From: a virus
Taxonomy: Duplodnaviria > Heunggongvirae > Uroviricota > Caudoviricetes
Virus record (IMG/VR): IMGVR_UViG_646311924_000020
Strand: one strand, 5' to 3'
Length of the DNA: 43,730 nt
Shown: piece by piece, positions 27,875 through 43,730 of the stretch
Position numbering within the stretch: position 1 is the stretch's first letter
Layout: each line of letters opens with the position of its first letter
Notes under the pieces: model-generated
Database searches by the model: none
Told to the model about the DNA's origin: nothing
Seen by the model: the letters and a program-made list of their open reading frames with translations, nothing else
Translations under genes and position numbers: made by a program

Positions 27875-27950
27875 TGGTGCTGGTTAACGGACTTGAACCG
27901 CTACCCATTCGCTTACAAGGCGACTGCTCTACCATTGGAGCTAAACCAGC
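27875..27950 (-). tRNA. tRNA-Thr (anticodon UGU)
   Basis: 76 nt cloverleaf folded by hand: acceptor GCTGGTT/AACCAGC, D-arm GCTC/GAGC, anticodon loop CTTGTAA, T-arm with TTCAAGT loop, discriminator A, encoded CCA. Confidence 0.75.
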
Positions 27951-27955
27951 ATATT

Positions 27956-28030
27956 TGGCGGGACAGCGTGGACTCGAACCACGATAAGAAGGTTAACAGC
28001 CTTCCGTAATGACCTTTATACGACTGACCC
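27956..28030 (-). tRNA. tRNA-Asn-like (anticodon GUU), non-canonical, possibly pseudo-tRNA
   Basis: 75 nt: anticodon stem GAAGG/CCTTC with loop CTGTTAA, T-arm CGTGG-TTCGAGT-CCACG, encoded CCA; but acceptor stem has a T-T mismatch and the D-stem is only 3 bp. Confidence 0.55.
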
Positions 28031-28612: not shown

Positions 28613-29274
28613 GCGCCTTCTCCCTGTACCTGAATCAATGTGAGATTTCCGCAGAACACTGCGCCGGTATCGATATACATCTGGTTGGCAAATTTGAGTG
28701 GTTTCACTGCTGGCGTATGACCAAAGATGAACGTGTCCGCGCCTTTAATTTCTTTCACGATCCCGTCTTGTGAGTTGCTGATTCGTTTGCGGTTCCAGAT
28801 TACCTGCTGATGATCAACTGGCTTTCCAAACTCGTATTCGTCAAAGGGATAATCGGCGTGGCAGATAACATATTTTTTATCTTTGCTCACCAGTTCGATG
28901 ATTAACGGAAGTTCTTCTGCTTTATGGGCAAGAGCTTTAGCCAGAATTTCTTTGTCGTAATCGAGATTAAAGAACCAGCCACCGCCATTAAGCAGCCAGT
29001 GATTGACGTTTCCACGCTCTGATAAGCCATCAATCATCATTTGCTCATGGTTTCCACGTACAGCTCTGAACCAGGGGAATGTGATTAATTCCAGACATTC
29101 GACGTTCTCTGTACCGCGATCAACCAAATCGCCCACCGAGATAAGCAGGTCTTTTTTGGTGTCGAATCCTATCGTCTCCAGTTTTTTCATCAGGTTCGTG
29201 TAGCATCCGTGCAGATCGCCAACTACCCAAATATTTCGGTATTTGCTGCCATCAATTTTTTCGTAATAGCGCAT
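28603..29274 (-). CDS. Ser/Thr protein phosphatase (lambda NinI/orf221-like)
   Basis: Metallophosphatase motifs GDLHGC, GDLVDRG, GNHE; start placed at ATG 29274 ([23 protein letters not shown]) as in lambda orf221. Confidence 0.85.
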
Positions 29275-29458
29275 CTCTTTCACTCCATCCGCGATGAACC
29301 ATGAGAACGTCGTTGACGATGGCGTGCATTTTCCCGTCTTTATCATCAACGTATTTTCTGACCGTACCGCGACTACATTTCAGTCTGCGTGCTACTTCTG
29401 TCTGGTTTCCGTATGCTTCAACGAGCATGTCTGGAATGGTTTTTACTGAGAACGTCAT
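29252..29458 (-). CDS. ninH: NinH
   Basis: 68 aa [68 protein letters not shown], matches recalled lambda NinH. Confidence 0.9.
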
Positions 29459-35954: not shown

Positions 35955-36000
35955 TCGCTTTTCAGCGACGTAGGACGAATGTCCGTTGTTACAAAGAGCG
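35955..36000 (-). promoter_or_regulatory. candidate nutR (boxA plus boxB)
   Basis: Minus strand just after cro: CGCUCUUUGUAACAACG (boxA-like), a small hairpin GGAC-AUUC-GUCC, then UCGC-UGAAAA-GCGA (GAAAA loop as in lambda boxB). Nearly the same arrangement recurs upstream of N. Confidence 0.5.
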
Positions 36001-36010
36001 GATCCGCTTA

Positions 36011-36226
36011 TTAAGCGGCTTTGTGTTCCGGCGGGAACACGTCATCAAGACTGACTTTTGCGCCTAACTTGTTTAGGCACGCAACAAGAGCACGGCATGT
36101 TTTAAGGTCTGGGAAGCGACGACCAGATTCCCAATGTCCGATAGCTCCCTGTGTGCATCCAACTGCCTTAGCAAGTGTTGTTTGAGAGATATTCAGTGAC
36201 TCTCGATATTTTCGTAGGTTGCTCAT
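36011..36226 (-). CDS. cro: Cro-like repressor (HTH_XRE)
   Basis: 71 aa from ATG 36226 (MSNLRKYRESLNISQTTLAKAVGCTQGAIGHWESGRR...), GGAGGG RBS, divergent from cI. Confidence 0.8.
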   Translation of the reverse strand: MSNLRKYRESLNISQTTLAKAVGCTQGAIGHWESGRRFPDLKTCRALVACLNKLGAKVSLDDVFPPEHKAA

Positions 36227-36252
36227 ATGCCCTCCATAGTAACCATAACGCA

Positions 36253-36281
36253 ATAATACGATATGTACTTTTAGAATGCAA
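36253..36281 (-). promoter_or_regulatory. candidate pR promoter (-35 TTGCAT, 17 bp spacer, -10 TATTAT)
   Basis: On minus strand upstream of cro; spacer and -10 overlap the 15-mer AGTACATATCGTATT, an operator-like motif also present at pL. Confidence 0.45.
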
Positions 36282-36343
36282 ACAAAAAATACATCTTGTG
36301 CATGGATGATTTTAGTACAGAGCGTAATAATAAGGGTATGAAA

Positions 36344-36997
36344 ATGAAATGGTATGAACTGGCTAGATCCAGAATGAAAGAGCTCGGCATAACTCAAGAG
36401 AAGTTAGCCGAAGAGCTTGGTATGACGCAGGGTGGAATTGGTCACTGGTTGCGCGGATCTCGTCATCCATCTCTTGACGAGATTGGTGTGGTGTTTAAAT
36501 ACCTTGGTATTGATAACGTCTCATTCAACCACGACGGTACATTTTCACCTGTTGGCGAATACTCATCTGCCCCCGTTAAAAAACAATATGAGTACCCTGT
36601 TTTTTCTCATGTTCAGGCCGGTATGTTCTCGCCTGAGCTTAGAACCTTTACCAAAGGTGATGCGGAGAGATGGGTCAGCACAACCAAAAAAGCCAGTGAT
36701 TGTGCGTTTTGGCTTGAAGTTGAAGGTAATTCCATGACCGCGCCAACAGGATCCAAGCCAAGCTTTCCTGACGGGATGTTAATTCTCGTTGACCCTGAGC
36801 AGGCTGTTGAGCCAGGTGATTTCTGCATAGCCAGACTTGGTGGTGACGAGTTTACCTTCAAGAAACTGATCAGGGATAGCGGTCAGGTGTTCCTACAACC
36901 ACTAAACCCGCAATATCCAATGATTCCATGCAATGATAGCTGTTCCGTAGTAGGGAAAGTTATCGCCAGCCAGTGGCCTGAAGAGACATTTAGTTAA
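36344..36997 (+). CDS. cI: CI-type prophage repressor (N-terminal HTH, C-terminal S24 LexA-like domain)
   Basis: HTH segment ([23 protein letters not shown]) and S24 motifs (GNSMTAP...FKKL); start chosen at ATG 36344 (7 nt after AAGGG); ORF-track start 36296 is a TTG. Confidence 0.85.
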
Positions 36998-37029
36998 CAG
37001 CCTCACCACTCTAAAACACACAACAATAA

Positions 37030-37057
37030 CCCGACCTTAGCGTCGGGTTTTCTTTTT
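37030..37057 (+). terminator. intrinsic terminator after cI
   Basis: Hairpin CCCGAC-CTTAGC-GTCGGG followed by TTTTCTTTTT, 33 nt after the cI stop. Confidence 0.6.
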
Positions 37058-37123
37058 CCAAAATATAAACCCATTAAATACAAAGCGTTATAAAAAACTA
37101 AACCATATTTAGAACATTTTGTA

Positions 37124-37152
37124 TTGACTCAGTAAAGTACACATCGTACTAT
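37124..37152 (+). promoter_or_regulatory. candidate pL promoter (-35 TTGACT, 17 bp spacer, -10 TACTAT) with overlapping operator-like 15-mer
   Basis: Spacer and -10 contain AGTACACATCGTACT (37136-37150), an inverted-repeat-containing 15-mer near-identical to the one at pR. Confidence 0.5.
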
Positions 37153-37198
37153 TTAGCTATCAGCAGGAAGCTGGAAGCCAAACGGAACAGACTGGCAG

Positions 37199-37244
37199 GC
37201 TCTTTAAACAACGTCGAACACTCGACTACGTGGCTGAAAAGCCA
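37199..37244 (+). promoter_or_regulatory. candidate nutL (boxA plus boxB)
   Basis: GCTCTTTAAACAACG (boxA-like), small hairpin GTCGA-ACAC-TCGAC, then TGGC-TGAAAA-GCCA (GAAAA loop); located between pL and N. Confidence 0.5.
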
Positions 37245-37342
37245 GATCACCCAACCACATAAGCTGTGGGATGCAATGCCGAAGCAACCGTCTCAGGAGG
37301 GGCTTCGAGATTGCATCGCCAAAGTTTATTCGGGAGGAATCT

Positions 37343-37615
37343 ATGTCCAGAAAAACAGAATTTAAAGGAACCGCAGCTTCTCGCCGTAGAGCTCGTCGTG
37401 CAAATCTGCAAAGTCAGGAGGCGATCAGCTCCGACAAGCTACACAGGCCAACCCCTTCACGAGTGGTCTTGCAATGCAAGCGCAAACCAGCAATGAGAGC
37501 AGAAGTGATAACTCTGACAACGTTGACCAGAAAATATGAAGGTTCAACTTGTCTTCCGAACGTAGCCATTTACGCGGCAGGCTACCGGAAATCAAAACAA
37601 CTGACGGCGAGATGA
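37343..37615 (+). CDS. N: N-type antitermination protein (arginine-rich motif)
   Basis: 90 aa from ATG 37343 (GGGAGG RBS): MSRKTEFKGTAASRRRARRANLQSQEA...; first gene after pL and the nut-like site. Confidence 0.7.
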   Translation: MSRKTEFKGTAASRRRARRANLQSQEAISSDKLHRPTPSRVVLQCKRKPAMRAEVITLTTLTRKYEGSTCLPNVAIYAAGYRKSKQLTAR

Positions 37616-37743
37616 CTTGTGTTGGTCGCCAGAAAATGAAATTAGGCAGCAAACCACTTATTTGAGGTGAGATATGGAAGAAGAATTTGAAGAGTTCGAA
37701 GAGCATCCGCAGGATGTGATGGAACAATACCAGGACTATCCGT

Positions 37744-37944
37744 ATGACTACGACTACTGATAAAAATCAATGGTGTGGACAATTCAAGCGATGCAATGGA
37801 TGCAAGCTGCAATCGGAATGCATGGTTAAGCCTGAAGAAATGTTTCCTGTAATGGAAGATGGGAAATATGTCGATAAATGGGCAATACGAACGACGGCAA
37901 TGATTGCCAGAGAACTTGGTAAACTGAACAACAAGGCTGCCTGA
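37744..37944 (+). CDS. ral: Ral (restriction alleviation protein)
   Basis: 66 aa MTTTTDKNQWCGQFKRCNGCKLQSECMVKPEEMFPVMEDGKYVDKWAIRTTAMIARELGKLNNKAA, matches recalled lambda Ral. Confidence 0.85.
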   Translation: MTTTTDKNQWCGQFKRCNGCKLQSECMVKPEEMFPVMEDGKYVDKWAIRTTAMIARELGKLNNKAA

Positions 37945-37962
37945 TGGCGGCCTTTATTTTTG
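37935..37962 (+). terminator. intrinsic terminator overlapping 3' end of ral
   Basis: Hairpin GGCTGCC-TGAT-GGCGGCC (one G-U pair) followed by TTTATTTTTGG. Confidence 0.5.
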
Positions 37963-38009
37963 GCATAAACAACAGAATAAACACAGCACTGAATTATTTG
38001 AGGTGAGAT

Positions 38010-38480
38010 ATGACAAAATCATGGAGCGTACCTTTTCCTGAATCAGAAACTGAACATGATGGAATGCCTGTTTTCTGGAGATTCCAAGCGACAGTTGAAG
38101 AAGATGGAATCAAAATATTCGCACTTCAATATATAGCTTTTCATCAGACAGATCATTATGCATGGTTGGTTCCTGCGCATTGGATTGTTAATTTTAAACC
38201 AGCACCAAATCAGTGGTTACAGGAATGGAAACAAAGGAGAAATAGATATGCAATTAAGAAAGTAGCAAAAAATGCCGAAAGATCTTTTGCATTCCCGACG
38301 AAGAAACTTGCCATTGAAAGTTTATTGCGCCGGAAGAAGTACCATTTAATGAGAATCAAACAAGATTTGGCTGTTGTATCAACTCTTGTTGATGGGATGA
38401 AGAATATTGATACATCAATACCAGATATTGAATATAACTTTGGACACAACCAAGAAACAGAAAATTGGGTGTTTTATTAG
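38010..38480 (+). CDS. hypothetical protein (156 aa), accessory gene between ral and cIII
   Basis: AT-rich ORF with strong RBS GAGGTGAGATATG, no predicted membrane segment; no family recognised. Position corresponds to P22 gene 17 / lambda sieB locus. Confidence 0.55.
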   Translation: MTKSWSVPFPESETEHDGMPVFWRFQATVEEDGIKIFALQYIAFHQTDHYAWLVPAHWIVNFKPAPNQWLQEWKQRRNRYAIKKVAKNAERSFAFPTKKLAIESLLRRKKYHLMRIKQDLAVVSTLVDGMKNIDTSIPDIEYNFGHNQETENWVFY

Positions 38481-38584
38481 TACGAATAAGCACTGTGTAT
38501 TCATTCCAACGAGTGAATACACGGAGCAATGTCGCTCGTAACTAAACAGGAGCCGACTTGTTCTGATTATTGGAAATCTTCTTT

Positions 38585-38610
38585 GCCCTCCAGTGTGAGG
38601 GCCTTTTTAT
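38585..38610 (+). terminator. intrinsic terminator after the 156 aa gene
   Basis: Hairpin GCCCTC-CAGTGT-GAGGGC followed by CTTTTTAT. Confidence 0.65.
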
Positions 38611-38674
38611 ATGCATACCAATAACGCTTCACTCGAGGCGTTTTCGTTATGCAATCAAACAGAAGGAGCATCCT

Positions 38675-38845
38675 ATGCAACAGTTCGCTATTGCAGGGGC
38701 GGCATCGGTTCGCCCTTTCAACCCGATTTTATCGGTACAGCATTCACGAAAAAATATTTTAACCGGAGCAGACTTTAAACAACCAAGAATGAAAAGCTTG
38801 CTCGAAAAGCTTTGGGATATTTTGAAACAACAAGGCCGCCCATGA
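38675..38845 (+). CDS. cIII: CIII-like protein (FtsH inhibitor)
   Basis: 56 aa from ATG 38675 (AAGGAG RBS): MQQFAIAGAASVRPFNPILSVQHSRKNILTGADFKQPRMKSLLEKLWDILKQQGRP; N-terminal MQ-AIAG and central amphipathic LLEKLWDIL resemble lambda CIII. Confidence 0.7.
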   Translation: MQQFAIAGAASVRPFNPILSVQHSRKNILTGADFKQPRMKSLLEKLWDILKQQGRP

Positions 38846-39012
38846 GTTTTACAGATAACTGGTCAGACGAAGAATTCATTCGTCAGATGAAAGAATTAAT
38901 CGGTAACGAAGGAGATATTCATGTCACTTGCAACCACCGTGAAGGAGAGCAAGTTACAGAGACGCATGTACACGCAGCAGGCGTTAATGTATCGCCAGAA
39001 GGGAGATCGTGA
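38842..39012 (+). CDS. hypothetical protein (56 aa), kil position
   Basis: ATG overlaps the cIII stop (ATGA); small acidic protein; function by position only. Confidence 0.4.
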   Translation: MSFTDNWSDEEFIRQMKELIGNEGDIHVTCNHREGEQVTETHVHAAGVNVSPEGRS

Positions 39013-39101
39013 AGGTGTTCGCGTATTTTTAAATGCGGCAAAGACTGAAGTATTAAATCAGCGTTATTTCCTTGGGCCATGTCCATTCTGAGAACAATCA
39101 T

Positions 39102-39707
39102 ATGAGCAAAGAATTTTACGCAAGACTGGCAGCTATTCAGGAAAATCTGAACGCGCCCAAGAATCAGTACAACTCATTCGGTAAATATAAATACAGAAGC
39201 TGCGAAGACATTCTTGAAGGCGTTAAGCCGTTACTGAATGGTCTGTTTTTATCAATCAGCGATGAAGTTGTGTTGATTGGTAATCGGTATTACGTGAAAG
39301 CCACGGCAACTATTACCGATGGCGAAAACAGTCATACGGCAACCGCTCTTGCACGAGAGGAAGAAAGCAAGAAAGGAATGGATTCTGCACAAGTTACGGG
39401 AGCTACAAGCTCTTATGCACGCAAGTATTGCCTCAATGGTTTGTTCGGCATTGATGATGCGAAAGATGCAGATACAGACGAGCATAAACATCAGCAGAAC
39501 GCAGCAGCAAAGCAATCAAAACCATCACCTACACCTGAACAGGTTCTAAAAGCATTCACTGACGCAGCATTGCAGAAAAACACCGTAGAAGAGCTTAAAC
39601 AGGCGTTCGCCAAAGCGTGGAAGATGCTCGAAGGCACACCGGAGCAGCACAAAGCGCAGGACGTTTACAACATCAGACGAGACGAATTAGAAGGAGCGGC
39701 TGCTTAA
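39102..39707 (+). CDS. erf: Erf (essential recombination function, single-strand annealing protein)
   Basis: From ATG 39102: MSKEFYARLAAIQENLNAPKNQYNSFGKYKYRSCEDILEGVKPLLNGLFLSISDEVVLIGNRYYVKATATITDGENSH..., matches recalled P22 Erf. Confidence 0.95.
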   Translation: MSKEFYARLAAIQENLNAPKNQYNSFGKYKYRSCEDILEGVKPLLNGLFLSISDEVVLIGNRYYVKATATITDGENSHTATALAREEESKKGMDSAQVTGATSSYARKYCLNGLFGIDDAKDADTDEHKHQQNAAAKQSKPSPTPEQVLKAFTDAALQKNTVEELKQAFAKAWKMLEGTPEQHKAQDVYNIRRDELEGAAA

Positions 39708-40090
39708 TGGCACATTCGATTACTGTAAGACTAAACAAGCCCGCAAGAGAGTTTCAGGCCGGGGAAAATATCGGATTCAACATCCGTGCTGGCGTTCAGT
39801 ATTACGATCGCCAGACAAAAAAGAAAGAATGGACAAACTACAACGCCGTTGTATTTGCCAAGCCGGGAGCGCAAGCGGATTACTACCGTAGTGTTCTTGT
39901 TGAAGGTGGCATTGTAGAAATTACCGGAGAAAACATCAGGGTTGATGTTTATCAGGGGCAAAATGGTCAATCAATCACTCTTGAATTACTGAATGCAAAG
40001 ATTGGATTTGCAGCTTCAGGAAATGGCCCGCAGCAGCAAAGTAGTAACCAGCAGAACACCCCTGTATACGACGATTCCATCCCATTCTGA
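39707..40090 (+). CDS. hypothetical protein (127 aa), immediately downstream of erf
   Basis: ATG overlaps erf stop (TAATG); MAHSITVRLNKPAREFQAGENIGFNIRAGVQYYDRQTKKKEWTNYNAVVFAKPG...; function unknown. Confidence 0.55.
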   Translation: MAHSITVRLNKPAREFQAGENIGFNIRAGVQYYDRQTKKKEWTNYNAVVFAKPGAQADYYRSVLVEGGIVEITGENIRVDVYQGQNGQSITLELLNAKIGFAASGNGPQQQSSNQQNTPVYDDSIPF

Positions 40091-40113
40091 TTTAGAAAAA
40101 TAAGGATTTAATT

Positions 40114-40407
40114 ATGCCAGCGCCTCTGTATGGTGCGGATGACCCGCGCCGCTGTTCCGGCAATTCCGTATCGGAGGTGCTGGATAAATTCAGGAAAAAT
40201 TACGACCGGATAATGTCGCTACCGCAGGAAACAAAAGAGGAAAAGGAATTTCGCCACTGCGTATGGCTTGCAGAGAAAGAAGAACGCGAGCGAATTTACC
40301 AGACATCAATCCGACCATTCCGCAAAGCCACATATACCCACTTCCCTGAAATTGACCCGCGCCTGCGTAATTACCGCTCACGCTATGGCGCTATCAGTAA
40401 TAACTGA
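40114..40407 (+). CDS. possible Abc2-like anti-RecBCD protein (97 aa)
   Basis: Size and position (second gene after erf) fit P22 abc2; I cannot verify sequence identity from memory. Confidence 0.4.
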
Positions 40408-40417
40408 GGAATTTACC

Positions 40418-40585
40418 ATGAGAGGACTTGCATACAATCCCAGCATTCTTCCGGCAGAAATGATTATTCGCCAGCGCGTAAAGCCAATGCCATCGAGAGA
40501 GGAATTACTTAAGAGAAATTCTTTTCCGTCAGTAAATCAAAACAAATATCTGAATGCGATGTTGCGTAAAGGAGGCAAGCAGTGA
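40418..40585 (+). CDS. hypothetical protein (55 aa)
   Basis: ATG 40418 after GAGGA; operon-strand small ORF. Confidence 0.35.
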
Positions 40586-40881
40586 GTGTATGTCTTATTG
40601 ATAAACGTCGACGTGGGCAACAAATACCATCTGTTGAAATGCCGAATCACACATGGTTTTGCGTACTTGATATCGATGGTATGGATACGTTGGTTGACAC
40701 TCGTCATTACTGCGATACCGCAACAGCTACTCCGGCGAAAGCAAAGAAAATTGCTGCTCTGATAGAAAACTGGACTCCACCTGATGGTTGGTGCAATGGG
40801 AATGATCGAGATTGGCATGAAAAAATGAAGGGCTATATCTGCGATTTCTTACGTAAATGCAACGGATTCAGGGTGATGTGA
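40582..40881 (+). CDS. hypothetical protein (99 aa)
   Basis: GTG start overlapping previous stop; Cys/Trp-containing small protein. Confidence 0.45.
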
Positions 40882-40882
40882 C

Positions 40883-41437
40883 ATGAACAAGATTGACTAT
40901 CAGGCACTGCGTGCCAAGGCAGAAAAAGCAACGTGTGGTGAGTGGTCGCTCGAATATGGAGAGGAGAGATTTGATGCTGGTGATGCGCTAATTCATCGTG
41001 AAGTTGTTGGATATCTTCCCATTTGCAGAATTGAAGGAGCGCATCCTGAAAGCGGTTTCGATGAAGATTTCCAGATGGAACAGCAGGCCAATGCTGAATT
41101 TATTGCTGCCTTTAATCCAAAGGTTGCTTTGGCACTGCTGGATGAACGGGAAAGAAACCAGCAATACATCAAACGCCGCGACCAGGAGAACGAGGATATT
41201 GCGCTAACGGTAGGGAAGCTGCGCGTTGAGCTTGAAGCAGAAAAACAGCGGGCAAAAGTTCTATTTATGGAAAATGCTCGGCTTAAGTCAGGCATAGCCG
41301 GTCTGATACACCTCGGTATTCGATATGCAGATGTTGAGGTCATGAAAATTGCTGGAGATGCCCAGCTTTCTACCCCATGCACTGACAGCATCATAAACAG
41401 CATTGCAACAGGCATTCGCATCAAAGGAGGTGAGTAA
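40883..41437 (+). CDS. hypothetical coiled-coil protein, possibly Ead/Ea22-like
   Basis: 184 aa with central coiled-coil (RRDQENEDIALTVGKLRVELEAEKQRAKVLFMENARLK); resembles Ead/Ea22-like prophage proteins by memory only. Confidence 0.45.
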   Translation: MNKIDYQALRAKAEKATCGEWSLEYGEERFDAGDALIHREVVGYLPICRIEGAHPESGFDEDFQMEQQANAEFIAAFNPKVALALLDERERNQQYIKRRDQENEDIALTVGKLRVELEAEKQRAKVLFMENARLKSGIAGLIHLGIRYADVEVMKIAGDAQLSTPCTDSIINSIATGIRIKGGE

Positions 41438-41613
41438 TGCGTGTGGCATGTATCGGCTTGTTACCGTACCCGACTCGTTTTTGGGCTTCTGCGCTAATTG
41501 CAAAGCCGCATGTCCTGATGGCTGACAACATCATCCCGGCACCAAAGCGCCGCCATACCGGTATTGCATCGGCACGACGAGCAGCAAAGAAACGCAGGAG
41601 AGCAAAACGATGA
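41437..41613 (+). CDS. hypothetical protein (58 aa, basic C-terminus)
   Basis: Translationally coupled small ORF (TAATG start, ATGA stop overlap). Confidence 0.3.
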   Translation: MRVACIGLLPYPTRFWASALIAKPHVLMADNIIPAPKRRHTGIASARRAAKKRRRAKR

Positions 41614-41798
41614 AAAACCGTAAAGCAAAGATTCTGTTAGTTCGTAGAAACGCTCCTGGCGTCTGGCAGTGGGTGAGACTCAGCAACCGACGGGTGGGGT
41701 TAATGAAACATTACGGGATGATGGATTGTGGTTTTTGCAAAAAGCCCAGCGCGGCGCAAAACCGCTGGAAAAACCACTTGCGTACTAAAGGAGAGTGA
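41610..41798 (+). CDS. hypothetical protein (62 aa)
   Basis: Start overlaps previous stop; basic, Cys-containing. Confidence 0.3.
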   Translation: MKNRKAKILLVRRNAPGVWQWVRLSNRRVGLMKHYGMMDCGFCKKPSAAQNRWKNHLRTKGE

Positions 41799-41799
41799 T

Positions 41800-42009
41800 A
41801 TGGCTATTGCCGCAAGTTACACCATGCATCTCTATTGTGACTGCCGCCAGTGTACGGAAGGTGTATATCCAGTGCCAGACTTCGGAGAGTATATCGGCAC
41901 GTCATGGGCTGGTTGTGCAAAAGAGGCGCGTAAGGATGGCTGGCGAATAAGCAAAGACAAAACACGTGCTTTTGCGCCTGGGCATAAAGTTTTGAGGATT
42001 AACAAATGA
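41800..42009 (+). CDS. hypothetical Cys-rich protein (69 aa)
   Basis: ATG 41800 after AAGGAGAG; MAIAASYTMHLYCDCRQCTEGVYPVPDFGEYIG... Confidence 0.35.
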   Translation: MAIAASYTMHLYCDCRQCTEGVYPVPDFGEYIGTSWAGCAKEARKDGWRISKDKTRAFAPGHKVLRINK

Positions 42010-42809
42010 CCACTATTACCAGAGAACAAGCTCTGAAAATTATTGAGGCAGCCGATGAGGTTATTAGTGCGCTTGCCGGAACTAACGAGGATGTTCACCC
42101 TGGTAGCGATAACATGCTACGCCTGTGGGATGACCTGAATGACCGTTACGCGCCGCCGGAAGTTGTGCGTGAGCTGGCACGGATTGCGCTGGCATCGTTG
42201 GAAGCAAAACCAATAGGTGCATTCCACATTGCAGAACAGCAAGTTGACGGCACAAGTGACTACCTCAAGGATGGAGAATGGCCTATTGATAATGGGACAA
42301 TTGAAGTATACGCCGCCCCTCCAGTGCCAGTAGTACCTGAAGAAAAACCAATGCCTAACCCTCTTAGCATGTACGCGGTCGATGCTGTTGCCGCTATTGC
42401 AGAGGTGAGAGGCTGGAACGCCTGCCGCGCCGCCATGCTTCATGGTGCCGAACCTGTAAGCCAAACTTACAAGTCACAACACACGCAGTTTGAACAAGTT
42501 GCTGACCTCTACGAAATGCAATTTGATGACGGTCGCACTTGTGCCTTTCACACTGATGCGCAAAAGGCTGCGCAATGGCTTCAGGCATGCGACGGAAACA
42601 GGGTTCAGGAATACGTGAAGCTGGAGCGATTGCGTAATGCGCTATCGGGCAACTCTCCGGTAACTCCGGATGGTTGGGTTATGGTGCCGAAGGAACCAAC
42701 TCAGGCCATGATTAAAGCGTGGCTATCAGAGATTGCTAACTTTCGCGGTCATGCTGCTGGTTACAGGGCTGCTCTTGAGGCAGCACCACAGGAGGTTAAC
42801 CGTGGCTAA
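42006..42809 (+). CDS. hypothetical protein (267 aa)
   Basis: Longest ORF of the early accessory region; no family recognised. Confidence 0.55.
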   Translation: MTTITREQALKIIEAADEVISALAGTNEDVHPGSDNMLRLWDDLNDRYAPPEVVRELARIALASLEAKPIGAFHIAEQQVDGTSDYLKDGEWPIDNGTIEVYAAPPVPVVPEEKPMPNPLSMYAVDAVAAIAEVRGWNACRAAMLHGAEPVSQTYKSQHTQFEQVADLYEMQFDDGRTCAFHTDAQKAAQWLQACDGNRVQEYVKLERLRNALSGNSPVTPDGWVMVPKEPTQAMIKAWLSEIANFRGHAAGYRAALEAAPQEVNRG

Positions 42810-43086
42810 CCTGCAACTTGCCGTCAAAGGTGAATACTTCGATGCCATGATTCGCGGAGAGAAAACAGAAGAGTATCGCCTGTGTAATGACTACTGGAAT
42901 AAGCGAATTATGTTCCGGGAGTATGACCGCCTGATTATCACAAAGGGATATCCGAAGCGCGACGACTCCAGCCGCAGAATAGACGTCCCGTATGACGGAT
43001 ATGAAATCAAGACAATCACACATCCCCACTTCGGCGATAAACCGGTAAAGGTGTTCGCGATAAATGTGAATATCGGCAATGAATAA
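42802..43086 (+). CDS. ASCH-domain-like protein (94 aa)
   Basis: GTG 42802 after GGAGG; VANLQLAVKGEYFDAMIRGEKTEEYRL... resembles ASCH/PUA-like small proteins (from memory). Confidence 0.45.
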   Translation: MANLQLAVKGEYFDAMIRGEKTEEYRLCNDYWNKRIMFREYDRLIITKGYPKRDDSSRRIDVPYDGYEIKTITHPHFGDKPVKVFAINVNIGNE

Positions 43087-43145
43087 CAACCCTCGCATTT
43101 GCGGGGATTTCTTTTATCTGAACTCGCTACGGCGAGTTTTGTTTT

Positions 43146-43457
43146 ATGGAGATGATTATGGTCTGTTCAACATTCAACCATCTAACGTTACAGAAATACC
43201 AGCCAGACCCTGAAGATTTATGCTCACTGTGTGGCGGAAATCATGGTAAAGCCGCCATGATCGAATGTAATGACAAAATCCACATTTGCCTTAATTGCGT
43301 TGATGTCCTCGTTGATATCAAAAATGAGAGAGAAGATAAAAAGCGTAGCGAGGCTATTCGCGCCTTAGATTCATGGATGCGAGATGGGTATAGTGCTGCG
43401 CAAATTTATGACTTAGCAATATCAAAAGGCGAAATACCAGGAGTACGCATCGAATAA
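43146..43457 (+). CDS. hypothetical protein (103 aa), possible zinc-binding
   Basis: Contains CSLCGG...CNDKIHICLNC cysteine pattern. Confidence 0.5.
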   Translation: MEMIMVCSTFNHLTLQKYQPDPEDLCSLCGGNHGKAAMIECNDKIHICLNCVDVLVDIKNEREDKKRSEAIRALDSWMRDGYSAAQIYDLAISKGEIPGVRIE

Positions 43458-43497
43458 GACATAACCGATATTCGAATTGAAGAACTGAAAGAACACC

Positions 43498-43524
43498 AAG
43501 CCGCCTGATGGCGGTTTCTTTTTG
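43498..43524 (+). terminator. intrinsic terminator upstream of xis
   Basis: Hairpin (AAG)CCGCC-TGAT-GGCGG(TTT) followed by TTTCTTTTTG; shares the GCCTGATGGCGG core with the terminator at 37935-37962. Confidence 0.5.
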
Positions 43525-43538
43525 CCTGGAGAATTAAG

Positions 43539-43730
43539 ATGACCGATACCAGCCTGATTCCTGAGAAAGAAGTGATGAACAAGCTCGGTGTTTCATCACG
43601 TCAGACAATCTGGAACTATACCAAACGACACGGATTTCCGAAGCCAGTCAGAACCCACCCCAAATCATACCTTCGTGAAGCTGTTGAAGGGTGGATTCTT
43701 AACGGTGGCGTTAATCAGAAATGCTCCTGA
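43539..43730 (+). CDS. xis: excisionase / AlpA-family DNA-binding protein
   Basis: 63 aa, HTH-like segment (MNKLGVSSRQTIWNYTKRHGFPKPV); last gene before the window edge, where int is expected next. Confidence 0.6.
   Translation: MTDTSLIPEKEVMNKLGVSSRQTIWNYTKRHGFPKPVRTHPKSYLREAVEGWILNGGVNQKCS

Follow-up and report, generated by a model that had tools for sequence, protein, structure and literature searches.

Nine early accessory genes of a P22-like prophage in Escherichia coli O111: a mosaic array with an ASCH-like protein and a putative ClpX N-domain mimic

The window analyzed here, the whole 43,730-nucleotide (nt) stretch of the IMG/VR virus record IMGVR_UViG_646311924_000020, carries at positions 40418-43457 a run of nine small genes, g1-g9, located between the recombination genes and xis of a P22-like prophage. 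This run probably makes up the far, dispensable end of the early-left (PL) operon and is best read as an array of independent early accessory cassettes, each of which would encode a small protein that modulates host machinery. Regions of this kind are well known: P22, Sf6, lambda, and Shiga toxin (Stx) phages all carry such an early-left accessory block, of which the present one is an ordinary mosaic version, and all nine genes are already present in public genomes. New elements are the ASCH fold predicted for g8, the proposal that g9 and its relatives are ClpX N-domain mimics, the case for g4 and g5 as genes in phage 933W, and the anatomy of the cassette that carries g9. The value of the region is that of a map, which tells which open reading frames (ORFs) are real, which genes travel together (g1 with Abc2) or separately (g9), and where two fold-level assignments (g8 and g9) can be made.

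Organization of the nine-gene array

The nine genes, with product lengths in amino acids (aa), are as follows.

g1, 40418-40585, + strand, 55 aa
g2, 40582-40881, + strand, 99 aa, GTG start
g3, 40883-41437, + strand, 184 aa
g4, 41437-41613, + strand, 58 aa
g5, 41610-41798, + strand, 62 aa
g6, 41800-42009, + strand, 69 aa
g7, 42006-42809, + strand, 267 aa
g8, 42802-43086, + strand, 94 aa, GTG start
g9, 43158-43457, + strand, 99 aa

An earlier reading of this DNA, made from the letters alone and referred to below as the sequence-only reading, had placed nine ORFs of 55-267 aa between a recombination module and xis, and this is borne out by the ORF listing and by RefSeq, which makes the same calls in 100%-identical E. 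coli O111 chromosomes. A GGAG/GAGG-type Shine-Dalgarno motif lies 5-10 nt before each of the nine starts, and the coding density of 40418-43457 is 97.6%. The descriptors given at that time can also be attached to individual genes: the coiled-coil protein is g3, the ASCH-like one g8, the Cys-rich ones g2, g6, and g9, and the 267-aa protein g7. The further claim that all nine are coupled holds for g1-g8, which are joined by 4-nt overlaps at g1/g2 (GTGA), g4/g5 (ATGA), and g6/g7 (ATGA), a 1-nt overlap at g3/g4 (TAATG), an 8-nt overlap at g7/g8, and 1-nt gaps at g2/g3 and g5/g6. It does not extend to g9, the start of which is 71 nt past g8, beyond two hairpins with U-runs.

All nine proteins match PHROG families over their full length. 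The statement that none is assignable with confidence turns out to be too pessimistic at the level of family and fold, because g1, g2, and g3 pass Pfam thresholds, g7 belongs to the Eaa family, g8 has a predicted ASCH fold, and g9 appears to be of ClpX type. Searches against the PADLOC defence models returned no family for any of the nine (E <= 0.01), and those against NCBIfam returned only weak ClpX matches for g9.

A scan for sigma-70-like promoters in 39900-43730 found none, compared with 5.0 +/- 2.0 expected from shuffles, which fits the interior of a long operon. The upstream N-like gene with its arginine-rich motif and the presence of terminator-like hairpins within the operon agree with early expression by antiterminated transcription. 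We infer that, after infection or induction, N-antiterminated transcription from PL would proceed through the recombination genes (gp33-like, Erf, SSB-like gp31, and Abc2) to xis. Ribosomes would move from g1 to g8 via the overlapping or abutting stop and start codons; g9 would be translated from its own ribosome-binding site, with the antiterminated polymerase reading through the hairpins that flank it.

Synteny and mosaicism of the early-left block

On the + strand, the early-left genes follow the order N-like gene, ral, gp33-like ORF, Erf, SSB-like gp31 homologue, Abc2, g1-g9, and xis. The position of the array, from the recombination and anti-RecBCD genes to xis and downstream of the repressor/N-like region, parallels that in P22, Sf6, HK446, 933W, and lambda. 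In P22, the slot between abc2 and xis is occupied by orf56-eaE-orf45-eaF-eaD-eaI-eaA-eaG-eaC, and the equivalent slot elsewhere holds the lambda exo-xis genes, 933W L0069-L0063, or Sf6 gp24-gp19. The sequence-only reading had called this a classic nonessential early region in which anti-defence and host-takeover genes build up, a view that synteny with P22 ea and lambda exo-xis supports, as does HK446, in which a gene in exactly this slot encodes Oad2, an inhibitor of the OLD nuclease.

Relative to the P22 ea region, the array shares the position in the PL operon, the first gene (g1/orf56, 79% identity), the Ead core (g3/EaD), and patches of EaA (g7), but in pairwise comparison the window has no homologue of EaE, EaF, EaI, EaG, or EaC and has instead a DUF7739 protein, g4-g6, an ASCH protein, and the ClpX-zinc-binding-domain-like g9. 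The lambda/Stx exo-xis region (orf60a, orf63, orf61, orf73, ea22, ea8.5, and orf55; L0063-L0069 in 933W) is likewise an early dispensable block just upstream of xis; however, homologues of orf60a, orf61, orf63, orf73, and ea8.5 are absent from the window, and the recombination module is of the Erf/Abc2 type rather than Exo/Bet/Gam. With 933W, the array also has in common an Ea22-type protein that appears split (g3...g7) around inserted small genes.

The extent of reassortment was surveyed in 80 IMG/VR contigs, the best 80 of 504 viral stretches encoding a g8 relative, chosen for a g8 at least 96% identical. Among these loci, g1 is found in most, g2 in 14, g4 in 10, g6 in 7, and g9 in 15-16, while g7 occurs in many alternative forms; each gene except g8, which defines the loci and is not counted, is missing from some related phage, an indirect sign of dispensability to which the splitting of g9 by an insertion sequence in sister lysogens (see below) can be added. 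Degrees of relatedness also differ from gene to gene. g6, g8, and g9 are 90-97% identical to 933W L0068, L0064, and L0063, respectively; g3 and g7 are patchworks, and short DNA islands (41130-41245, 42648-42677, 43083-43156, and 43457-43528) are shared with otherwise different phages. The run g4-g5-g6-(g7-like)-g8 recurs in phages of other types, namely phiV10, which is epsilon15-like, and RCS47 and D6, which are P1-like. Such independent assortment marks the genes as exchangeable cassettes.

g9, a putative mimic of the ClpX zinc-binding domain

Several comparisons suggest that g9, the counterpart of 933W L0063 and Sf6 gp19, is a mimic of a ClpX domain and not a ClpX unfoldase. The 99-aa protein consists of a C4 domain (about aa 19-58, CX2CX18CX2C), a long helix, and a variable C-terminus; it has no AAA+ module and ends after the helical tail. 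Its only PDB matches, in single-sequence or profile searches, are ClpX N-terminal zinc-binding domains (ZBDs) at E of about 0.02, and zf-C4_ClpX is the only Pfam family matched by all 20 of the 20 family members examined, every match being below threshold (best E 1.3e-3). In HHalign comparison with ten ClpX-type domains, g9 scores 38.8 (probability 93.4%, P 2.6e-7), compared with 14.0 (1.1%) for the reversed control and at most 24.1 (at most 37.8%) for 30 column shuffles in which the Cys columns were fixed.

The family is confined to Enterobacteriaceae (31 clusters). C22, C25, C44, and C47 are invariant across genera, with the spacing of C15/C18/C37/C40 of E. coli ClpX (Met1-inclusive numbering), and are flanked by the motifs CSFCG and ICxxCV. 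What g9 has in common with the ClpX ZBD (PF06689; PDB 1ovx, 2ds5-2ds8) goes beyond the CX2CX18CX2C spacing to the helix that starts from the second CxxC, the motifs CS(F/L)CG and IC.(E/N)CV(D)L, and hydrophobic equivalents of F16 and I46, which align with the conserved L24 and I54/M of g9. In ClpX, the hydrophobic patch around F16/I46 of the ZBD binds lambda O, SspB, and RssB (PMC7804408). Overall divergence is considerable, with about 33% identity over 39 columns for g9, whereas the copies in D6, P88, and Cr30 retain 52-77%.

These copies came to light in tblastn searches with residues 1-60 of E. coli ClpX, which showed that several temperate phages, unrelated to one another, encode a ClpX-type ZBD as a free-standing protein of about 65-110 aa. 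They are 39-77% identical to E. coli ClpX over residues of about 10-55, and some are mis-annotated as 'carboxylate-amine ligase'. Examples, with positions in the loci retrieved, are the following.

D6 orf93, L094 1312-1632, free-standing ClpX-type ZBD
P88 gp19, L095 1348-1680, free-standing ClpX-type ZBD
PhiR41_1, L102 118-441, free-standing ClpX-type ZBD, directly after an Ea22 gene
Pseudomonas phage Alize, L096 1025-1354, free-standing ClpX-type ZBD, two genes from the integrase
Pseudomonas phage phi1, L100 298-495, free-standing ClpX-type ZBD

Like g9, these proteins are of about 100 aa and are encoded in accessory regions of temperate phages; the ZBD is N-terminal in g9 and Alize but C-terminal in D6 and P88. 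It is tentatively proposed that they constitute, together with g9, a recurrent class of free-standing ClpX N-domain mimics, which would titrate adaptors or N-domain-dependent substrates, or heterodimerize with the ClpX ZBD, and so switch off one branch of host ClpXP early. SspB, RssB, lambda-O-like replication proteins, and MuA-type complexes would be the targets of such titration. No such takeover mechanism is described in the literature searched, and searches on phage ClpX-type zinc fingers and phage ClpXP inhibitors returned nothing on these proteins. If true, a ClpX mimic that rewires ClpXP would represent a new class of phage host-takeover protein, and it would matter for the biology of Stx phages because 933W has the same gene.

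g9 also stands apart in its DNA setting, as a separate cassette bracketed by terminator-like hairpins. Two spacers delimit it.

g8-g9 spacer, 43087-43157, + strand, two terminator-like hairpins with trailing U-runs at 43091-43106 and 43120-43139 (terminator scan)
g9-xis spacer, 43458-43538, + strand, orf55 remnant and GC-rich hairpin with U-run at 43498-43517

The hairpins of the first spacer are stable (free energy -26.5 kcal/mol, z -4.45, with none of 200 shuffles as stable). In the second, the hairpin at 43498-43517 is 20 nt upstream of xis, and the fold of the spacer as a whole is ordinary (z -1.2). Both flanks are of lambda type: 43083-43156 is 93% identical to lambda 29288-29361, between ea8.5 and orf55, and 43457-43528 is 93% identical to lambda 29098-29169. 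The remnant at 43468-43509 corresponds to the last 13 codons of lambda orf55, DIRIEELKEHQAA*, and its stop codon falls in the hairpin loop. The same flanks hold an intact orf55 in lambda and an orf55 homologue in APC_JM3.2. The shared flanks and the remnant thus indicate that g9 replaced most of orf55 at a defined cassette-exchange site.

An equation of g9 with Ea8.5 was considered and rejected, as BLAST against the lambda exo-xis proteins relates only g3. In O111:H8 strain 05-3004, a copy of the insertion sequence IS1203 lies in g9 (L103 3259-4871). A weak Rfam match to Leu-leader at 43083-43141 was dismissed because it merely reflects the terminator-like hairpins.

g8, a minimal ASCH-like protein

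g8 corresponds to the C-terminal part of 933W L0064 and to phiV10 p54. ASCH proteins carry the signature motif GxKxxExR, and in an alignment of 40 diverse g8 members (A4), K21 does not vary, and conservation reaches at least 90% at G19, E24, and R26. Fold search predicts a PUA-like beta-barrel whose closest relatives are solved ASCH structures; a profile search of the PDB with g8 had missed the ASCH structures later found in this way. Sub-threshold ASCH matches occur in 13 of the 40 members, the best at E 0.003. Despite the sub-threshold Pfam score of g8 itself, the protein is accepted here as ASCH-like at the level of the modelled fold, on account of the size of its family (754 divergent cluster representatives) and the conservation of GxKxxExR.

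At 94 aa, g8 is shorter than the ASCH proteins with which it can be compared, namely 3iuw of Enterococcus faecalis, PH0355 of Pyrococcus horikoshii, the ac4C amidohydrolase YqfB of E. coli, and the ASCH ribonuclease of Zymomonas mobilis. At the place of Glu24 of g8, YqfB presumably has Thr. A literature search on phage ASCH proteins returned nothing that deals with g8.

g3 and g7, parts of the Ead/Ea22 and Eaa families

g3 is a clear member of the Ead_Ea22 family (PF13935, 107.8 bits vs a gathering score of 27) and is tripartite, with a module at the N-terminus (about aa 1-80), a conserved coiled-coil core (about aa 82-123), and a C-terminal module unlike that of lambda Ea22. Identity with Sf6 gp21 is 71% over aa 1-113, and that with lambda Ea22 is 59% over aa 51-123. 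At the DNA level, the core (41130-41245) is 95% identical to lambda, with 92-95% across lambda, 933W, and JM3.2 and 88% in P22. The dimeric C-terminal domain of lambda Ea22, for which there is a nuclear magnetic resonance structure (PMC10834534), is not matched in g3, as the alignment ends at g3 residue 123. A single-sequence search of the PDB gave no match for g3.

g7 is acidic (isoelectric point, pI, 4.7) and belongs to a large family: related clusters number more than 7,800 and go under the names 'eaa protein' or 'DUF551 domain-containing protein', with 60-100% identity over 55-100% of g7. In the family alignment (A3), five modules are recognized, joined by the short, almost invariant peptides LASLEAxP, APPxPVVP, GWNACRAAML, GNSPVTPDGW, and PEPPQEV. 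Over about aa 1-222, g7 has the same four modules, joined by the same peptides, as thousands of Eaa/DUF551 proteins. The latter end in DUF551, whereas g7 ends in a 45-aa alternative module (VMVPKEPTQAMIKAW...), which also occurs in P0048, P0078, P0082, and P0126 of the same alignment. g7 has no Pfam match, DUF551 (PF04448) included, even at E 10; nor did a single-sequence search find a PDB relative. Patches of g7 are shared with P22 EaA and with the C-terminal part of Sf6 gp21. Judging from the alignment, the DNA encoding the junction peptides of Eaa/DUF551 genes probably serves as recombination joints. One such joint would be the 30-nt DNA island at 42648-42677 within g7, which is also present in JM3.2, 933W, P22, and Sf6.

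In phrog_60, g3 covers positions 1-130 and g7 positions 116-324, so that the two together resemble a single, longer type of protein cut in half. Sf6 gp21 is in effect the N-terminal part of g3 fused to a C-terminal part of g7. The split around small genes matches a published remark on 933W, whose Ea22 is split by insertion (PMC8614690).

g1, g2, g4, g5, and g6

g1 is a basic protein (pI 11) without Cys, belonging to DUF2737 (PF10930, 112.3 bits vs a cut-off of 25) and 96%, 89%, and 79% identical to Sf6 gp23, HK446 gp28, and P22 orf56, respectively. It is present in 47 of 47 loci with a full abc2 (44 full-length and 3 partial), an association which argues that g1 probably goes with the anti-RecBCD/recombination module and is not a free accessory gene. 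g2 belongs to DUF7739 (PF24881, 75.4 bits vs a cut-off of 27) and matches phrog_1239 at full length; it contains six Cys and three His, is 94% identical to Sf6 gp22, and has no PDB relative in a single-sequence search.

g4 and g5 are strongly basic, with pI of 12.0 and 11.6, and match phrog_13831 and phrog_1380, respectively, at full length. g4, with a hydrophobic N-terminus and an arginine/lysine-rich tail, is the least certain of the nine genes. It is 97% identical in phiV10, with six synonymous and two non-synonymous changes (non-synonymous to synonymous ratio, pN/pS, 0.12), and is also present in RCS47 and Dewey. In 933W, where it is unannotated, its frame is intact despite an in-frame 21-nt deletion, the sole indel. 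The g5 frame is likewise intact and unannotated in 933W. Homologues of g5 with identities down to 57% at the aa level keep the ORF in P22-like, Stx, epsilon15-like (phiV10), and P1-like (D6 and RCS47) phages, with pN/pS of 0.25-0.68 and the conserved pattern MKNRKAK...SNRR...AAQNRWKNHLRTKG. Taken together, these comparisons suggest that the 933W annotation overlooked two real genes, g4 and g5. A zinc site in g5 was rejected, since its cysteines are not conserved across the family. As a separate observation, phiV10 (p50/p51, L010 2174-2544) and RCS47 (L012 2174-2535) each carry a tandem pair of diverged g5 paralogues, in which the MKNRKAK... and ...AAQNRWKNHLRTKG ends are conserved and the middle is variable.

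g6 is 90% identical to residues 25-93 of 933W L0068, that is, its C-terminal 69 aa, and belongs to phrog_926. Purifying selection is clear for g6 (pN/pS 0.16-0.24) and moderate for g5. The family alignment (A5) reveals an invariant YCDCxxC (C13, C15, and C18) and a conserved AP(G/N)HK, making a CCCH metal site a candidate feature. Neither Pfam nor the PDB yielded a relative, profile search included, and profile matches to the fibronectin-type-II repeats of gelatinases were set aside as chance.

Proposed mode of action and alternative explanations

In the model favored here, for which we infer the molecular functions from family and fold, each product of g1-g9 would act alone, binding or modulating some part of the host machinery as a small protein in the first minutes of infection. 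g1 would function with Abc2 and the recombination module. g3 would form a coiled-coil oligomer of the Ea22/EaE superfamily, relatives of which bias the phage to lysogeny (lambda Ea22) or block an abortive-infection nuclease (Oad2 against P2 OLD), and g7 would be an Eaa protein shuffled together from several modules, with exchangeable end domains that probably bind targets. The arginine-rich g4 and g5 are probably nucleic-acid binders, and g8, as a minimal ASCH domain, may bind or process RNA or a modified base. For g9, the most likely role would be that of a decoy for ClpX N-domain ligands (SspB, RssB, and lambda-O-type substrates) or of a partner that pairs with that domain, in either case leading to rewired ClpXP proteolysis.

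A number of points weigh against this model or its parts. PL transcription of 40418-43457 and read-through of the hairpins are assumed from lambda and P22 biology. Conserved as they are, the nine are not genes of established function in related phages: the PHROG label is 'unknown function' for all nine, and a literature search returned nothing on DUF2737, DUF7739, or the PHROGs concerned, nor did one on the P22 ea genes return anything on these proteins. The Pfam matches of the two fold-level assignments fall short, with 14.2 bits vs a cut-off of 21.2 for g8 (ASCH, PF04266, profile positions 1-23 only) and 15.6 bits vs a gathering score of 27 for g9 (PF06689). The AlphaFold2 (AF2) model of g9 has a per-residue confidence (pLDDT) of 51-56 over residues 11-40 and is confident only for helix 45-75; the poor model of the zinc part leaves the fold unconfirmed. 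IS1203 interrupts g9 after about codon 24 in several O111:H8 strains whose sequence of this region does not differ otherwise; the lysogen can therefore do without g9, and a gene of little use would fit this finding equally well. For g4, substitutions are too few for a firm coding test, both against phiV10 and in the other comparisons. Lastly, BLASTP of the nine proteins against Oad2 at E <= 1 found nothing but a chance-level match of g1 (E 0.039), and the link between g3 and Oad2 consequently rests on PHROG profiles that include a generic coiled-coil segment.

In one alternative, possible but on the doubtful side, the region is a dedicated anti-defence island, and most or all of the nine are inhibitors of host immunity triggered by the RecBCD-manipulating genes of the phage, with g3 (or g2) being Oad2-like. 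Gp27 of HK446, named Oad2 (OLD anti-defence 2), binds and inhibits the P2 OLD nuclease; its gene lies directly after abc2 and a DUF2737 gene, it is EaE-related and at times fused to EaD/Ea22, and Gp33 of the HK446 recombination module is an OLD trigger and putative RecBCD manipulator (2026 preprint, bioRxiv 10.64898/2026.07.10.737580). The location of the Oad2 gene is that of g2/g3, and the authors of the preprint regard it as an anti-defence hotspot. The window has a recombination module 95-99% identical to that of HK446. The matching triggers are there as well, namely an ORF about 93% identical to Gp33 and the gene for Abc2. It also has a gene for tRNA-Thr(UGU), the isoacceptor reported to be cleaved, among others, by P2 OLD, whose action phage copies are reported to counteract. 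g3 shares phrog_368 and phrog_492 with P22 EaE and HK446 Oad2 in overlapping profile columns (phrog_492: E 5.6e-5 for the C-terminal fragment of g3, E 6.2e-18 for Oad2), and an arms race would fit with the way in which g3 and g7 shuffle their modules and turn over fast.

Several facts speak against this alternative. Although Oad2 and EaE resemble g3 in the coiled-coil and in the slot of g2/g3, no window protein has pairwise BLAST similarity to them. A homologue in HK75 that is 54% identical to Oad2 is inactive against OLD (bioRxiv 10.64898/2026.07.10.737580), and family membership hence does not predict anti-OLD activity. g8 and g9 suggest RNA or nucleoside chemistry and proteolysis control rather than known anti-defence folds, and the published exo-xis phenotypes concern lysogeny and induction. 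An anti-defence role for g3 or g2 is a reasonable possibility by these profile and positional criteria, and the accessory/anti-defence reading of the region as a whole is plausible, though only partly supported. If g3 or g2 is Oad2-like, the anti-OLD hotspot would extend to prophages of Stx-producing E. coli, which also carry Gp33 and tRNA-Thr(UGU). Two similarly named leads were discarded: Oad1 is an unrelated vibriophage protein, and a paper on an 'SSB-like trigger' of DRT10 deals with a different phage protein.

A second alternative, somewhat unlikely, holds that the genes are developmental fine-tuners that mainly adjust the lysis-lysogeny decision and prophage induction, as reported for the exo-xis genes of lambda and Phi24B. 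The coiled-coil core of g3 is the same as that of lambda Ea22, which is described as pro-lysogenic (PMC7093339, PMC10834534). Three reports (PMC7093339, PMC3824215, PMC10789677) assign ea22 to the side of lysogeny and orf60a, orf61, orf63, and ea8.5 to that of lysis, and they describe impaired lysogenization and altered induction when the whole exo-xis region is supplied on a plasmid. g9, as a ClpX N-domain decoy, could stabilize short-lived phage regulators or replication proteins. However, the eight genes other than g3 are absent from lambda, and the reported exo-xis phenotypes are modest and come without a known mechanism.

That the nine products form one co-functioning system, assembling or acting in a single pathway, is very improbable. 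The tight translational coupling of g1-g8 and the order g4-g5-g6-(g7-like)-g8, kept in P22-like, Stx, epsilon15-like, and P1-like phages, would be in keeping with such a system, but presence and absence are largely independent across the 80 loci with near-identical g8, neighbours are exchanged at conserved boundary sequences, and Sf6, 933W, JM3.2, and P22 each have a different subset, all of which argues against a multi-component system and for the cassette array proposed here. The idea of mostly decaying, non-functional ORFs in a recombination-prone region, which the IS1203 copies in g9, the orf55 remnant after it, and the weak coding statistics of g4 might suggest, is hardly tenable given nine intact ORFs with Shine-Dalgarno motifs, purifying selection on g5 and g6, the at least 96% identity of g8 in the best 80 of 504 stretches alongside its spread over 754 divergent cluster representatives, and g9 motif residues that are invariant across genera.

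Prophage setting and neighboring features

The whole window is a P22-like prophage, 100% identical to an E. coli O111 chromosome at a site between dacD and sbcB. Its gene set combines a tailspike, ejection proteins, and a P22-type capsid and portal with lambdoid functions for immunity and replication, the nin genes, and Q. The genes that frame the early-left order are located as follows.

N-like gene, 37343-37615, + strand, with an arginine-rich motif
Erf, 39102-39707, + strand
Abc2, 40114-40407, + strand
AlpA-type xis, 43539-43730, + strand

No RNA family was found by a scan of 36000-43730 against Rfam, apart from the dismissed Leu-leader match. The Gp33 homologue is unannotated; it occupies 38842-39012 (+ strand) within the ORF 38812-39012 and encodes 56 aa, MSFTDNWSDEEFIRQMKELIGNEGDIHVTC..., whereas RefSeq calls two other overlapping ORFs at this site in the identical E. 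coli region, 38675-38845 and 38921-39091. The tRNA-Thr(UGU) gene (27875-27950, - strand) is accompanied by one for tRNA-Asn(GUU) (27956-28030, - strand), both between Q and the lysis genes, and is 100% identical in BTP1 and other P22-like phages.

Between Erf and Abc2, 39707-40090 (+ strand) encodes a 127-aa protein that is 95% identical to HK446 gp31, and its C-terminus, ...PVYDDSIPF, resembles the acidic tip of bacterial SSB (DDDIPF). By this resemblance, the product may be SSB-like and able to dock proteins that partner the host SSB, for example SbcB, which is encoded next to the prophage. At the far end, the integrase gene is read from the other strand, towards the AlpA-type xis, and overlaps the 3' end of xis by 20 nt (43711-43730 of the window, and beyond it). 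The arrangement in P22, lambda, and Sf6 differs, with xis and the int gene after it sharing one strand.

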